A program made the position numbers and the translations under genes. The notes under the pieces are model-generated. The model had not been told where the DNA came from and did not search any database. It was given only the letters and a program-made list of their open reading frames with translations. Of a stretch of 64,000 nt of DNA, positions 10,493-19,230 are shown one piece after another (the first letter of the stretch is position 1; every line of letters starts with the position of its first letter). This DNA is from Phyllosticta citribraziliensis (lineage: Eukaryota): contig NW_027117345.1 in the NCBI RefSeq assembly GCF_038025025.1, positions 806,001-870,000 on the forward strand. Direction: 5' to 3'.

Positions 10493-12100
10493 ATGGCAAG
10501 CCCTACCGAATCCACGCTCCCTAGGAGGGCCACGACGACGACGACCATGGGCGACGAGAGCGCCATTCCCGACGAAGACACCAGCGAGGCAAGCCATGTT
10601 GATGCGCACAATTCCCAGACCTTGCGCACTAACCAGGGCCCTTGATTCAGGTTACCAAGCTCTTCCAGGAGCGCCTGCAGGCTTGGAAACACGCCTGCGG
10701 TTACATCGAGGAGTACATCACGGCCACCGAGAAGCTCCAGACTAGCCAGGGCAAGGAATACGAAAAAGTTCTGAAGGTCGGTCAAGTCGCATCCTCTTCA
10801 ATGCGTGCGCGCGTTGCTAACAGGGGTACAGACAGTCTCCTCTCCCCTGAAAGAAGGACACCACTTCAGTCAGGACATGGGCGGAGTGGCAGGGTGGTTT
10901 GACAACATTCGATCCAACACTCAGGTCAGTCGCAGCCGCAATCTCAACCCCCGTTCTCAATTGACGTCCTAGGCACTTTCGAATTCGCACCAAAACACCG
11001 CCAAGTCGCTCAAAGGCCAGGTCCTCCCAATATTCGAACGCCTGCACGCCGAGATAAAGAACAAGAACAAGGAGCTCACCAAGGGGGCTGGAAAGACTGG
11101 AAAGGCCGTCGACAAGGCTCGTGCTGTGACCCAAAAGCATATCGAGCTGCTAGGTCAGCACACTGCTGCGTTCGCGTCTGCCGGCGGCAGAATAACCGCC
11201 GACCAGGATCCTTACGTTCTCAAGCGCCAAGTCGTCCATCGCCTGAACAAGCAATGCATCGAGGAGAACAACAACCGCCAGGATCTCCTGGCTGTGCAGA
11301 ACAATTTCGCGCAATTTGAAGCGCACATTGTCCAGACTTTCCAGACCGGCATGGGCCAATTCAACACAGTCATAAACACGCAGATGGAGCAAAGCAAGGC
11401 CATGTACGCCGACATCGTCGGCACTTGCCAGTGCATCCCTGGAAACTTTGAGTGGGAGGGTTTCATCAAGCGCGAGACTAACATTCTCATTGATCCTTCT
11501 GCCCCTCCTCGCTCTGTGGGCAATATTGCATTTCCCAACCAACACCATGAGGCAGCACAGCCCCTGATTGCGGGCTCGTTGGAGAAGAGAGGAAAGATGC
11601 TTCGTCGCTACGACGCTAATTACTATGTGGTCACGCCAGCCAAGTACCTGCACGAATTCAAGACAGACGACGACTTTCAAAAGGACCCGGAGCCCGAACT
11701 CTCGCTGTTCCTGCCTGATTGCGCCGTCGGCGCCATCGATGGCAGCAAGTTCAATGTCAAGGGCAAAGACGTCTCCAAAGGAAAGATTGGCAACGCTTTT
11801 TCCATGACGCACGAAATAGCCTTCAAGGCGCACACAGCCAGCGACGCCGAAAAATGGTGGAACATTATTCGCGAATGCGCAGGCAGCACTACAAGCGAAC
11901 AACCCATCAGCCCGGCAGAGAGTAGGGCTACCAGCGGTAGTATGGCGTCGAGCCCGATCAGCCCAGATGGAAAAATGTCGCCGCTGCAGACACAGGGTAT
12001 CACGAGTGCCACTAGCTCAGAGCCTACGTCTGCTGTTGCAACCACGACTCCTGCTGCGCTAACCAGCGGTGTGAGTGATGAGAAGAAGGAGAAGGCTTGA
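10493..12100 (+). CDS. Slm1-like BAR + PH domain protein
   Basis: LFQERLQAWKHACGYIEEY helical N-terminus, DPYVLK, and a PH domain (IAGSLEKRGKMLRRYDANYYVVTPAKYLHEFK...AEKWWNII). Three introns; the first is GC-AG. Confidence 0.8.
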
Positions 12101-12584
12101 GGTTGGGAGCGAGGTAGTTGACCCTATGGCGCGGTCAAATTTTGGATTCCCCTTTCCGCCATTTTCTCTTCAACGCAACACGTCACGAAAACGACACTCA
12201 ATCGCGTCGACGCCTGACTTCATCTCCTTTTGTTTCTTTCACGTCTCGGCTGGGGGGAAGCTTTTGGTCTGTTTTGGTTAGCAGTATATCACAGGTCTGG
12301 TCTCGACCCCTTTCTAACATCATACGAGTGTTCAAACGCGCACAATGCTTGAAACTCCTGAAGACGATGCGCGGCCCGTATTCTGCGCCAGGATCAGTCC
12401 CGTATATGCCGTGAAGTTGTGGGCCCTGAAGATGAACCCAGGGGCTAGAGCAGAGAGCCCCTTGCGCACCCCACGCCGGTCCCGCCCGCTCTCCCGCCCG
12501 CGCTCTCGGCGCCTCCACGTACTCGCGCCCGAACATGCCACCTTCCCGTCACGTCGCAACCAACAGCCGGAAAATATTGCTCTC

Positions 12585-13877
12585 ATGTCACCTCCGACGC
12601 AACAAGAGAGCCATCAATCGCCCCAGGCACAGACTTCGCGGCTGATTCTGTACGCCCAGACTCATCACACTCCGTCCGGCGAACCCATTTCGCTGCTACC
12701 TCTTCTGACAAATGATACCGGCGTGACGCACGTCATCGTTGCCGCAATACACCTGAACGAGGGCCCTGGAAACATTACGCTCAACGATGACCCACCGAGC
12801 GCAAGCAAATTCAATCAGCTATGGGACGAGGTGCGACAGCTTCAGGCAGCAGGCGTCAAGGTGATGGGGATGTTGGGCGGAGCTGCCAAAGGAAGCTATT
12901 GGAGGCTGCAGGGTGACGAACAGCAGGTGAGCATGCAAAACTTCTGTACCAAGGCACTCTTATTCGGCGCCATGGGAAGCCATGGATTTGTGCAGCCAAG
13001 TCGGTAACGAGCAACCACCAACTCACGGCTGCTGCAGTTCGAAGCATACTACGCTCCCCTCCGAGACCTCATTCGACGACATGCCCTCGACGGCCTCGAT
13101 CTCGATGTTGAAGAGGAAATCTCTCTCCCTACCATCATCCGCCTCCTTTCGCGCCTACGCAGCGACTTCGGCCCGTCATTCATCACCACCCTTGCCCCAG
13201 TCGCGACGGCCATGATACCAGACTTGCGGCAACCACCAATCCTCTACACTCCAACGGCGCAACCTCAAAGTGCGCCGCTTCAGATCCCCCATTCCCATGC
13301 CCACATGTCTGGGCTCAATCACTTTGCGCTGGAGGCGGGACACGGACACCTCGTCAGTTGGTATCATGTCCAGCTCTACAACGGTTGGGGTGACGCCAGC
13401 AACGCGCACTTTTACGACGCGATGGTGTCATCCGGGTGGCCGGCGAGCAAGATAGTCATCGGCGTCTTGACGAATCACTGCAACGGGGGAAGCGGCTGGG
13501 TGGATGTGGGCAGGTTATCAGCGGTCGTGACGGCGTTGCGCAGCAGGGGTTTACGATTTGGCGGTGTCATGGGCTGGGAATACTTCAACGCAGGGTCAAA
13601 CGAGGGAGAAGAGGGCCGCGATTTGGCGTGCTCCAGCCGGCCATGGGAGTGGGTCAGGGTGATTGGAACCGCCGCCAGGGGGACGATACCAAACGTTGGC
13701 CAGGGGGAGGGGTTTGCTGCCCCTCCTGGTGGTCTGCCGCCAACCCAGGTCCCCTGGCCGAATGCCGACGTCGATAAGCTTTGCGAGCTGGGTTTCGGGC
13801 GCGCGAACGCCGTCGCGGCCTTGAATGCCACAAATGGCGACGTAGAGACGGCAGCCGCGTTACTTCTTGAGCAGTGA
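12585..13877 (+). CDS. GH18 endo-beta-N-acetylglucosaminidase-like protein (no signal peptide) with C-terminal UBA domain
   Basis: RLILYAQTHH, THVIVAAIHLN, KVMGMLGGAAKGS, catalytic DGLDLDVEE after intron 12927-13037, WYHVQLYNGWG, FGGVMGWEYFN. The tail VDKLCELGFGRANAVAALNATNGDVETAAALL is UBA-like. Confidence 0.85.
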
Positions 13878-14485
13878 CGAATCATGGGGACAAGAAGCCT
13901 CACCGGTTGGGCCAGTTTGAGTCACCCGGTATCTGAGTTTGCCGCGGCAACTCAACCTTGACCTCGCAGAAATGTACAGATCAATGTCTGACGCCTCACT
14001 ATCCGTGGTTCTGTCATGCCGACGGATGGTCTAGAAGCCATCTTCGCATGGGTAAGGTGAACTCAACTTGCTTTTGAGGAAGGCCAAAACGCAAAGTTGG
14101 GCGTTTCCTTTATTGATAGAGGGCGCGACCTATCCATCTTGGCAAGTCGATGGCCACTCGTAGTCACTGGTTGGCGGACTGCCAATTTACAATCTACACC
14201 GTCTGTCCAATGGGCTTGCAGATGCCGCTTTTCTACCCTCAAGCCCTATACGTCAAGTATAGTCAAGAATATTGAAGGAAGCACGTGCAGGATGCACTGA
14301 GTAGCATGAGCTGCATAAAGCATTTCCGCCATCCCGATTGGAAAGCGGAACACCTACTCCTTTTAGCAACGCTTCTTAACCGCAAAACGAGAACAGCAAA
14401 AAAGTTTCGGGACTTACCAAGATAGGTTGGAACAAGGGTCCCGGCCACTGCGTTCATCGCGTGGCCGTTCCCGTTGACAATGACC

Positions 14486-15289: not shown

Positions 15290-16148
15290 ATGTCTACAAT
15301 CGACGCCAGCCTCTCCGCGCCACTGCGGCCCTCCTTCCCCCTCTCAACGCACTTAAGCAGCGCCGACGCAACCGCCAACGAAAATGCTACAACAACGACG
15401 CTCATCCGCGCGCTGAAGCTCGCCCCGCACCCCGAAGGCGGCTACTTCGTCGAGCTGGACCGCGACGCCCGCCGCGTGACAAATCCCTTCCACGCGACGT
15501 ACGACAGCGGCATGCTGAGCCCGGCCGCGGGCGTCGTGTCGTTCGCCGAGACGGCGTCGGGCGACGCAAAGAGCTACAAGGACAACGCCGCCGAGCAGCG
15601 CTGGACCGACCTCACGCGCGCGGCCAGCACCAGCATCTTTTACCTGCTGGGCCAGGCCAACTCGGCGGGCAAATGGCACCGCAACAAGGGCCGGACTGTG
15701 CACACGCTGATTCGCGGCCGCGGCCGGTACGTGTTGATTCACGCGGACGAGGTCGATGGCGGCGACGATGGCCTCACGGGTAAGGCGCGCGTCGAGACGT
15801 TTGTTGTAGGCAAGAATGTCGAGCGAGGTGAGCGCATGGTGTGGATTGTAGACGGCGGCAAGTACAAGGCGAGCTTCTTGCTCGAGGACGAAGATGGCTG
15901 CGGAAAGAGTGAGGAGGGCTTGTTGATTAGTGAGGTGAGCTGCCTGCCCCCTGTGACATTGAACTACTCTTCTCAGGAGTATGCCTCAAGTGGGCTCTTT
16001 GGCTGACAATTTCCAGACTGTCGTGCCTGGCTTTGAGTTTGCAGATCACGACTTCTTGACCGAAGAGCGTCTCAGGGACCTGGTGACCGCTGAGCAAGCA
16101 GACGAGCTCGCCTGGCTGCTCAGAAAAGACAAGCCGCAATCTTCGTAG
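15290..16148 (+). CDS. Cupin_5 / DUF985 protein (yeast YML079W/Cff1-like)
   Basis: LKLAPHPEGGYFVE, STSIFYLL, WIVDGGKYKASFL, LLISE|TVVPGFEFADHDFL across one intron; stop at 16146-16148. Confidence 0.85.
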
Positions 16149-16466: not shown

Positions 16467-19230
16467 TCATCTCACTTCCTCTAGCAAGGCGGCGGCCACG
16501 GTCAAGCCCTCGTTCCTGAGCACCACCCTCTGCGCCGTCTCCAGCGGCACGGCCCGGTCAAGCTGAACCTCCACCTTCGCCACAGTCCCCGGCTGTATCA
16601 CGCGAGGCTTCTTCTTGGTAACCTCGCCAGAATTCTTGTCGAGAGTTGCCAACAGCTTGGTTATCCGCCCTTCCATGTTCCACCTGCCTTTGTGCACCTC
16701 TACGAACATGGGCATGACGTGCTCAAAGGCGAGAATCTTTGCGGTAAAGGTCGTGATGCTCTTGATTGCGTTTGCCGGATGGCACACAACGTCGCCCAAT
16801 CGCAGCTGATCCGGATCAATGTTGGTCAGGTGCAGTGTAGGAATTTGGCCAGCTACGGCCCAGTCGGCAGGCTCGTCGTCGACCATGATTCCCTTAATGA
16901 AAGCCGTACCCGTCTCGCCCGCTGGACGTGGTAGCGTAACGACAGCATCGCCAACCTGCAAGCTCCCCGAGTCGATGCGGCCAGCCACAGAGACGGCACT
17001 GGTGATGTCGCCGCGGAAAATGTCGGATATGGACATGCGGAGAGGACCGCTGACTGCGCGCTTGCTGACCTCAGACGTCTCGAGGGCCTGGACCAACGAT
17101 GGACCATTATACCAGGGAGCGACGTCTTTGGACACGGGGTGCGCGACGTTTTGACCCGTCAGACCAGCACAGGGGACAAAAGTGACGTTTTGAGGCTGGA
17201 AGCCGGCAGAGGTGAGGAACGCGGCCATTTGTTGTGAAATCTCGTCGAATCGCTCTTTGGACCAGGAGGCAGCATCCATTTTGTTGACGGCGATGATGAG
17301 TTGCTGTACACCAATGCTACGGGCAAGGAGTGCGTGCTCCTTGGTTTGTCCGCGCAGACCAGACTCGAAGCTGTTGGCGCTTGCATCAATGACGAGGACT
17401 GCAAAGTCCGCTTGACTGGCGCCAGCAATCATGTTGGGAACAAAATCTTGATGACCCGGGGCGTCGAGTATCGTGAATCTGGTCTTCTCCGTTTCAAAGG
17501 TATTCGTTGCAATGTCGACGGTTACTCCTCTAGAGCGTTCTTCTGACGTAGCGTCCATGACCCATGCCAACGCAAAAGACGACTTGCCCATGTTTTGGGC
17601 TTCCTTGCGGAGCTTTTCAATCGAACGCTCATCGACGACCTTGAGGTCGTACAGCAAACGGCCCATGAGCGTGCTCTTGCCGTGGTCTACGTGACCAATG
17701 ACGACGAAGTTTGCCGAGGGTTTGAGATTTGACTTTGCGTATTCTTCGAGGACGTTGAGATTTTTGCTCTTCACTCGGGGTGCCTCGTCCACGGTGAGAT
17801 TTGCGACGCCTTGAGTTACAGCCCCCGCCTCTTTGTCTTTCTGTTTTGCGGCATTTCCGGCCTTTTTGAAAGCCTTGGCCTGCTTGTTCAGTACCTCATC
17901 ATCCGGGCTTGGTCCTGCAAATGGATCAGTCTTGACGTCTTGCGGCATCATATATTTGCACGGAAGCGAGAATTCATAGCCTCCGCGGAGCTGTCCTCTT
18001 GGTGTCGATCCAAACATGGTCTTTGCGAATGTGGACGGTTCGGCTCGAATATCAGGCAGGTCCGCCTTTCGTTTCTTGGTCTCCACCTTGGGCGGTTCGG
18101 TGACTGTGACTGGCTCCGGCTTGACGGGACTCGGACTCCTTTTTCTGCGAGGATATGGCCGTGCCTTTGCGTTGGATTCCAGTGCTGTCGGCTCTTGTGG
18201 AGTGCCAGTTGAGATTTGGCTTCGATTGTCTTGGCCCCCTGAACTCACCTTTGTACTCAGGCTATCCAACAAGGAAACTGCTCGGCCGGTCTGCCGCTGC
18301 GCATCTTCTGCAGATGAAGCAGCGGAGTTTGACCTTGCCTCTTCCTGCTTTCTCCTCCGTGCAGCAGCCAAGGCAGCGATCTTGGAGGAGCCCCCGAGCA
18401 GCCCCATGCGTGGCAAAGTCCTTGCAGGAGTCAATGTTCCCCGTCGATGTATTGGAACGTTCAGCCACGGAGTGTCTTGGAAGAAATTCGCGGGCGTGGA
18501 GTCGGATTGAAGTGGTGGAAGCATCGCGGGAAGTGGATAGGCGTTGAAGACTTGCGAAAGAAGTTCAATTCAGCCAGTGTTCCGAAAGCTTTGGCGAGGT
18601 CGAGGTGGGTGGTCTTACATGGACCGGTACATGTGTCCGGGGCACTTTTATATTGGAGGACAGCTCCTTCGGGGCAAGGGAAACGTAAGGTGAAGATTGG
18701 AACACTGACCATTCACTTGTTTTGGTTGGGACTGAGCTGCGGTATTGGCAGCTTGGTCGAATCTAGAAGGCTGCTTTGCCTTCTTTGCTTGCGCGGGCTT
18801 ATGAGCATCTGTGAGGCATCATCAGTACCATCGTACACTGCCCACCGCAACCATGTCCCTGACTTTTCAAGTGCGTCACAGATTTCTCGATGTCGTAGTA
18901 ATAGTTCCATAACGCATCTTCAATCTGTTTGTCGCCGATGTTTGTGAAGTCTGAGCCCAGTGCTTCTCGGACTTTGGTTTTGCCTAGGCGCATTTGCTCT
19001 GGGGTAGGTCGTGCGTTAGTCGCGCAGGTCGGGAGTAGCTGTCAAGCGATGGTCGTTGTGCGTACCCTGATCTTCGGGACTCAACTCTGAGATAGTCGGG
19101 ATTAGCAGGAGATCGAGACGTGTCGGCGTAGAGGCGCTGGGCCCTCACCTTCTTCCCCATAATCATCCTCCTCGTAGTCGTCGATGTCGTCGTCGTCAAA
19201 GTCGATATTCTTGATCCTGCGATGCGACAT
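16467..19230 (-). CDS. HBS1: Hbs1/Ski7 translational GTPase (eRF3/EF1A family)
   Basis: N-terminal exons MSHRRIKNIDFDDDD..ELSPEDQEQMRLG..IEDALWNYYYDIEKSV (HBS1_N). GTPase motifs GHVDHGKSTL, ERSRGVTVD, DAPGH, NKMD. Ski7-like insert with SKIAALAAARRRK, AEPSTFA and PFAGPSPDD. Confidence 0.92.

Follow-up and report, generated by a model that had tools for sequence, protein, structure and literature searches.

A cytosolic GH18 ENGase orthologue with a C-terminal UBA domain in Phyllosticta citribraziliensis: a candidate link between deglycosylation and ubiquitin

A stretch of 64,000 nucleotides of Phyllosticta citribraziliensis DNA (NW_027117345.1, positions 806,001–870,000; hereafter the window) contains a two-exon gene whose product joins a GH18 barrel to a UBA domain. 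Sequence comparisons make the gene very probably an orthologue of the cytosolic GH18 subgroup-B5 ENGases (Eng18B/GH18-10), and the last 41 residues of the modelled product almost certainly adopt the UBA fold. The UBA is likely to bind ubiquitin, and it is reasonably probable that it thereby ties deglycosylation to proteasomal disposal; the proposal that ubiquitin binding serves coupling to ERAD has slightly better than even prospects. In the original prediction, made from the sequence, the fusion was suggested to couple N-glycan removal directly to ubiquitin recognition. A link to ubiquitin-dependent disposal is still the best reading of the protein, but it is one of several uses to which a C-terminal UBA with a Gly-Phe loop can be put.

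Gene structure and the GH18 barrel

The gene lies on the forward strand of the window, with its start ATG at 12585 and its stop codon TGA at 13875–13877, and its spliced product has 393 aa. Exon 1 (12585..12926) encodes aa 1–114, a short polar N-terminus without signal peptide followed by the first three barrel strands (the codon of Tyr23 occupies 12651–12653). Exon 2 (13038..13877) encodes aa 115–393 and the stop, with the remaining barrel, the linker and the UBA all in one frame. Between them lies a phase-0 intron of 111 nt (12927..13037, GT..AG), inside which the unspliced translation of 12585–13877 meets an in-frame TAA. The original prediction had placed the ATG, the stop, the DGLDLDVEE motif (13089–13115) and the UBA-like end where they are found, and its gene limits were right, but it made no mention of an intron.

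The intron joint is seen directly in assembled contigs, where exactly 111 nt are skipped at GT..AG in four of four runs (four studies). Two of these runs are 99+% alike to the window, and two, from a sister organism, are 95–99% alike; the RNA status of the runs is a tool's guess, with none recorded as RNA, and the spliced joint itself argues for RNA. Downstream of the intron the spliced contigs show no second joint: all of them cover the UBA and the stop and reach at least 14106, and those of the two same-organism runs extend to 14279 and 14300. Thus, the UBA is not removed by splicing, because the contigs run free of joints from the intron through the UBA; the in-frame UBA C-terminus claimed at the outset is retained in all four runs. 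The spliced model is identical at 393/393 residues to the annotated Phyllosticta protein P0554. An upstream in-frame ATG at 12345 is not taken as the start; contigs, which alone cannot fix a start codon, begin at 12568–12604, and the annotated twin P0554 starts at 12585. In agreement with the predicted lack of a signal peptide, the hydropathy maximum over the first 30 aa (9-residue window) is 0.34, by a test cruder than SignalP.

In the 3′ region, both sister-organism runs carry 101 other letters in place of 5 at 14106–14112. Across the UBA, the sister organism shows at least five synonymous and at least two nonsynonymous differences (37 coding rows listed), too few for a selection test. The gene is flanked by the last exon of a PH_20-domain protein (11351–12100, forward strand), a cupin DUF985 gene (15290–16006, forward strand) and an EF-Tu-family GTPase (16467–18524, reverse strand), which we take to resemble Hbs1; these neighbours suggest no gene cluster, and no functional link is seen among them.

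The barrel carries the catalytic motif DGLDLDVE (13089..13112; Asp137 and Glu139), the same as in Eng18B. Tyr223 (13362..13364) aligns with Tyr194 of Eng18B, which is catalytically important (PMC3346758), and Trp294 (13575..13577, in MGWEYFN) aligns with the −1 subsite Trp of Endo T, so that Asp137, Glu139, Tyr223 and Trp294 all correspond to residues singled out in Eng18B and Endo T. A 337-aa Trichoderma atroviride protein of Eng18B type, P0547, matches the window protein with 49% identity and 295 bits. P0547 is taken as Eng18B on its length and motif position (127), which match those given in the available text on that enzyme (PMC3346758); the N. crassa GH18-10 sequence was not among the matches. 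Eng18B and GH18-10 share DGLDLDVE, the Tyr and the lack of a signal peptide with the window protein but have no UBA, whereas the window protein adds the intron, the UBA and a 24-aa Pro-rich insertion (about aa 177–200; 13224..13295). This insertion is also missing from ChiC and Endo T and is common to Botryosphaeriales and Pleosporales relatives.

Four cytosolic orthologues are 50–52% identical in the barrel, a fifth on a long branch (Ascosphaera) reaches 42%, and secreted and bacterial members lie at 36–43%. Among known structures, exon 2 has few sequence matches beyond ChiC of Aspergillus fumigatus (2y8v, E 4e-44) and Endo T (4ac1, E 5e-35). ChiC (2Y8V, 51% identity) and the secreted Endo T/Eng18A of Hypocrea jecorina (4AC1, 40% identity) have the same barrel, and their catalytic Asp/Glu, Tyr and Trp are kept in the window protein, but the UBA is absent from both solved chains. 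In a Foldseek search with the model of a close relative, P0001, ChiC and Endo T superimpose with TM 0.89–0.91 (E no worse than 1e-29), and the next structures follow at E 1e-12. The barrel therefore groups with ENGases and not with chitinases in both fold and sequence, as the original ENGase-like assignment had it. The characterized B5 members have been reported to be ENGases (PMC3346758; PMC3408457; bioRxiv 10.64898/2026.03.25.714127), and from orthology and the intact residues we infer ENGase activity for the product. Of the two Pfam families expected originally, UBA scores over its cut-off, and GH18 falls below its own when either exon is scored singly (19 bits for exon 1). A Pfam GH18 search of the genome returns 7 matches and misses the window gene itself. 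Leu207 and Leu227 occupy positions that are Phe in 87/87 aligned relatives, and their letters are confirmed by same-organism reads.

The UBA domain and its distribution

The barrel is followed by a Pro/Gly linker of 25 residues (aa 328–352; 13677..13751), which has no secondary structure in the model, and by the UBA (aa 353–393; 13752..13874). Mean column conservation is 0.71 in the UBA, compared with 0.66–0.76 in the barrel and 0.42 in the linker. The UBA family PF00627 scores 34.2 bits on a 45-aa piece and 30.5 bits on exon 2 (gathering cut-off 22.4), and the AlphaFold model of the domain is a three-helix bundle with pLDDT 87. The best Foldseek rows are the Ddi1 UBA (2mr9, TM 0.80) and the Mud1 UBA (1z96, rmsd 0.5 Å), with probability 1.0, TM 0.76–0.80 and E of only 0.03–0.05 owing to the tiny size of the domain; the same two UBAs come first by sequence match. 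The UBA proposed from the letters is thus recovered by profile and by fold. Like the window UBA, those of Ddi1 and Mud1 (2MR9, 2MRO, 1Z96) have three helices, an xGF loop, a similar helix-3 end and a C-terminal position after a flexible linker. In contrast, Ddi1 carries its UBA on a UBL and a retroviral protease, whereas the window protein is a glycosidase without UBL, and the near-invariant Asn377 is unshared. The nearest UBA in the genome is that of Ddi1 (49% identity; 46 bits on a custom UBA profile, versus 24 for Rad23 UBA2), which suggests Ddi1 as the donor; the domain was probably borrowed from it. The genome's own Ddi1 UBA (L002:892-1626) has LGV instead of the xGF loop.

The UBAs of Ddi1 and Mud1 have been reported to bind ubiquitin chains, both K48 and K63 (PMC11012796), and the xGF loop and helix-3 positions are the ubiquitin-contact positions of UBAs (PMC5137425). 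In the window protein these are LGF (aa 365–367; 13788–13796) and the helix-3 end LLL (aa 389–391; 13860–13868), where Leu391 takes a position that is Phe in 96% of the cytosolic family. A Gly-Phe loop is an imperfect test of ubiquitin binding: its Phe is also missing in three apparently cytosolic members (P0122, P0131 and P0169), the Ddi1 of this genome has LGV, and TDP2 binds ubiquitin without MGF (PMC5137425).

A search with a UBA-containing query retrieved 1618 relatives, and those named among the 120 listed are Dothideomycetes, save one labelled Quercus suber. Of the listed relatives, 119 extend to the end of the barrel, and all 119 have the UBA according to the custom profile, a count biased by the presence of the UBA in both query and profile. 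A fairer search with the barrel only gave 150 representatives, bacterial and secreted forms included, of which 15 do not reach the barrel end. The 135 scored comprise 15 with a UBA containing GF, 9 with a UBA lacking it, 5 with an Rpn2-like tail, none with both, 47 with another tail and 59 with a short tail. In the ESM Atlas, two ascomycete clusters have both Pfam families in about 85% of their members, and UniRef names include 'UBA domain-containing protein', so the fusion is visible in automatic annotation. Judging by these relatives, the fusion is a class trait: throughout the Dothideomycetes, this orthologue usually ends in a UBA. The original prediction had called the architecture one without a known characterized example. 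A published description of a GH18 ENGase fused to a UBA was indeed not found in the literature searched, but the fusion is widespread in Dothideomycetes and already present in annotation. Being common in one fungal class and visible to Pfam-based annotation, it is of limited surprise. The 2017 survey in which Tzelepis and co-workers covered deglycosylases across fungal genomes could mention the UBA. UBA and ubiquitin are absent from the main text of a GH18 survey of 373 genomes, whose supplements might list the domain (PMC8042737). Some orthologues are mislabelled as 'cyclin-dependent kinase', 'alkaline phosphatase' or 'chitinase', and the Quercus suber and Cyclocybe records look like fungal contamination or transfer.

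Rpn2-like tails and secreted paralogues

A second type of C-terminus is found in Sordariomycetes. A search from a UBA-less orthologue returned 120 proteins, of which the named ones are Sordariomycetes but for two. The UBA occurs in 0/120 of these, a P..F[DE]Y..[DE] end in 117/120, and both in none. The P..F[DE]Y motif mostly lies 3–7 residues from the C-terminus in an acidic setting (P0426, P0547, P0123 and 114 more), and Eng18B itself (P0547) ends in an acidic PxxFDY tail. Rpn2 in this genome (L031:2018-2305) ends in PRDFEYFSE, with acidic surroundings. When a profile made solely from ENGase tails is used, this Rpn2 end comes first (21.7 bits, E 2.7e-5; next 8.7) in a search set of 266,505 residues, which comprises the window and selected loci, is far below a proteome and had Rpn2 added on purpose once the idea had arisen. 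In human Rpn2, P945, F948 and Y950 dock Rpn13 (PMC5494190). The tail motif has the same spacing, and human Rpn2 940–953 shares P-x-x-F-x-Y and the acidic C-terminus with the Sordariomycete tails, features absent from the window protein. A 12-sequence tail profile had no match among PDB sequences at E 10, nor did the fungal Rpn2 last exon match any, and a single tail peptide searched against the whole genome yielded 0 candidates at the first pass and was hence uninformative. A complex prediction with the Rpn13 Pru of another fungal species (L066) and the last 34 residues of P0426 scored 0.27 against a mark of 0.34 and, as an uncontrolled run, counts neither for nor against docking. The Sordariomycete tail thus resembles the Rpn13-docking tail of Rpn2, and its docking is predicted from this likeness. 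If the tail does bind Rpn13, whose Pru also binds ubiquitin, Eng18B would acquire in trans the capacity that the UBA would provide in cis.

Both the UBA and the Rpn2-like tail are missing from the orthologues of Fonsecaea, Agyrium, Ascosphaera and Morchella. The docking tail is thus dispensable, and the existence of such orthologues points to two separate gains of C-terminal modules.

The same three-helix domain is also found at the end of a group of paralogues, most of which begin with a hydrophobic segment, from Cercospora, Zasmidium, Baudoinia, Polychaeton, Cladosporium and others, which takes in Atractiella and Drechslerella as well. Baudoinia and Polychaeton carry both cytosolic and secreted-type forms; in the genome studied here, a query with the exon-2 barrel matched the window locus alone, which, given that the Pfam GH18 search passed over the window gene, does not establish that a secreted-type copy is lacking. 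The [LMI]G[FY] loop is present in 114/118 cytosolic rows (P0022 was left out of this set, and 2 further rows have no anchor) versus 0/54 paralogue rows, which were hand-picked as clade members with such a tail and include many fragments without an N-terminus. The helix-3 Phe (96% in the cytosolic rows) is replaced by Gly in 74% of the paralogues. The ubiquitin-contact surface is conserved only in the cytosolic copies, and the paralogues thereby serve as a natural control that favours a ubiquitin-related role for the cytosolic UBA. Conversely, ten fold positions (P355, L362, G366, A375, L376, N377, T379, G381, A386 and L390) remain at 80–98% in the paralogues, and an Asn-x-Thr/Ser at the end of helix 2 is found in 112/118 cytosolic and 53/54 paralogue rows. 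The core of the domain is therefore kept in secreted proteins that should never meet ubiquitin, and the fold may serve another use there. In P0172, P0303, P0302, P0202 and P0141, the kept N-x-T/S would offer a site for glycosylation on an enzyme that itself cuts glycans outside the cell.

Two quick trees disagree on where the secreted clade arose: with 51 rows, it is nested in the Dothideomycete cytosolic branch (SH-aLRT 98), whereas with 97 rows it sits on an open fork outside that branch. A single clade of 28 rows (16 cytosolic UBA rows and 12 from the secreted clade, two of the latter without a UBA-like tail) withstands the AU test (p-AU 0.71), which is no proof of it. Besides Dothideomycetes, the secreted clade includes a basidiomycete, an orbiliomycete and Leotiomycetes, a mixture that gene transfer may have produced. 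A signal-peptide member within the Pleosporales branch, P0126, has no UBA whatever.

Deglycosylation context and alternative readings

The Png1 orthologue of this genome (L019, G000:C1:1209707-1212961, ORF 580-1821) reads GRVGEW where mouse 2f4m and yeast 1x3w read GRCGEW, the Cys of which is the Png1 nucleophile. It thus has Val at the catalytic Cys, with the His and Asp kept; N. crassa Png1 is reported to lack both the Cys and the His. The search of this genome gave no match for a GH85 ENGase, which is not proof of absence. Together, the Val in Png1 and the lack of a GH85 match make the window protein the likely main cytosolic deglycosylase of this fungus. The Png1 of filamentous fungi has been described as inactive (PMC9102325; bioRxiv 10.64898/2026.03.25.714127). 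Yeast Png1 reaches the proteasome via Rad23, whereas PNG1 of N. crassa has neither activity nor a coupling to rad23; in that fungus GH18-10 removes glycans from RNase B, and it can take the place of Png1 when assayed with RTL in yeast (bioRxiv 10.64898/2026.03.25.714127). Loss of cytosolic GH18 ENGases affects secretion, stress tolerance and fertility (PMC3346758; bioRxiv 10.64898/2026.03.25.714127). How these ENGases reach ERAD substrates without the Png1–Rad23 link is not addressed in the literature searched: the available text of the GH18-10 study makes no mention of UBA, ubiquitin or Rpn (bioRxiv 10.64898/2026.03.25.714127), and that of the Eng18B paper makes none of ubiquitin (PMC3346758).

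In the mechanism proposed here, one spliced message encodes barrel, linker and UBA, a step shown by the contigs. The barrel would act on glycoproteins that have been extracted from the ER and cleave their high-mannose N-glycans within the chitobiose core, a job that Png1 presumably cannot do because of its Val at the catalytic Cys. The UBA would grip ubiquitin chains through the Leu-Gly-Phe loop and helix 3 and, with the flexible 25-residue linker, would hold the enzyme on ubiquitylated ERAD substrates, making it a single-chain stand-in for yeast Png1–Rad23. In that system, a deglycosylase is likewise joined to a ubiquitin-binding module (a property predicted here for the window UBA), but the window enzyme is of another class that leaves one GlcNAc, works as one chain instead of two and has no proteasome-binding UBL. 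The C-terminus of the enzyme may then be a ubiquitin–proteasome docking slot filled twice, by the UBA in Dothideomycetes and by the Rpn2-like peptide in Sordariomycetes. More tentatively, and with less than even odds, the replacement for a dead Png1 could have been wired twice in filamentous ascomycetes, with a Ddi1-derived UBA in cis and a mimic of the Rpn2 tail capturing Rpn13 in trans. If true, this would supply the missing physical link between ENGase and ERAD, and the docking groove of Rpn13 would have a client from outside the proteasome. Three constructs are at hand in the UBA, its decayed counterpart in the paralogues and the Rpn2-like tail, and the yeast RTL assay makes the question directly testable.

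Other roles for the UBA have to be weighed against a tie to ubiquitin-dependent disposal. The UBA could act mainly as a cis-acting shield that stops the proteasome from degrading the adjacent enzyme, as in Rad23 and Dsk2, a role that is unlikely as the principal one and compatible with the disposal reading. Protection has been reported for UBAs at the C-terminus whose Xaa-Gly-Phe loop has the Phe, and it can extend to a disordered segment inside the chain (PMC3105319). The window UBA has this strictly C-terminal position and the Gly-Phe and is preceded by a linker without structure, and loss of the Phe in the secreted paralogues would fit as well. However, orthologues with short (59/135) or unstructured tails (47/135) are numerous, and the acidic C-terminal peptide of the Sordariomycete proteins is itself unstructured, so the enzyme does not in general require such protection.

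It is quite unlikely that the UBA instead binds a UBL (of Rad23, Dsk2 or Ddi1) or another partner, such that the enzyme rides a shuttle as Png1 does on Rad23. The nearest relative of the domain, the Ddi1 UBA, binds the Rad23 UBL (PMC11012796), the genome encodes Rad23-, Dsk2- and Ddi1-like proteins, and the Sordariomycete tail likewise points to an adaptor (Rpn13) and not to ubiquitin itself. The same surface, though, takes both ubiquitin and UBLs, ubiquitin chains are the commoner ligand, and nothing in these data favours a UBL.

The kept core of the secreted domains bears on a decidedly improbable alternative, in which the three helices serve a ubiquitin-independent role (barrel packing, a folding aid or a regulator) in cytosolic and secreted copies alike and the loss of Gly-Phe is drift. 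The survival of the ten core positions in secretion-bound proteins and the shared, unusual Asn-x-Thr/Ser would agree with it, but ChiC, Endo T and Eng18B have functional, folded barrels although they lack the domain, and drift in both groups would not drive surface conservation to zero in the secreted clade alone. Finally, a true class III chitinase with an incidental UBA, as source names ('chitinase', 'class III chitinase') and the title of 2y8v (putative chitinase) would have it, is scarcely credible: true chitinases (GH18 A, B-I to B-IV and C) stand at 13–20% identity and E 1e-12 or worse, against 40–51% for ChiC and Endo T, the protein has no signal peptide whereas chitin is extracellular, and the characterized B5 members are ENGases.

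The B5 family also contains actinobacterial and proteobacterial proteins (P0339, P0341, P0349, P0360 and others) at about 40% identity. A third conserved tail, a DY..MVNA end, marks the Endo T-type clade (P0335, P0348, P0356, P0357, P0383, P0162, P0184 and 5 more).
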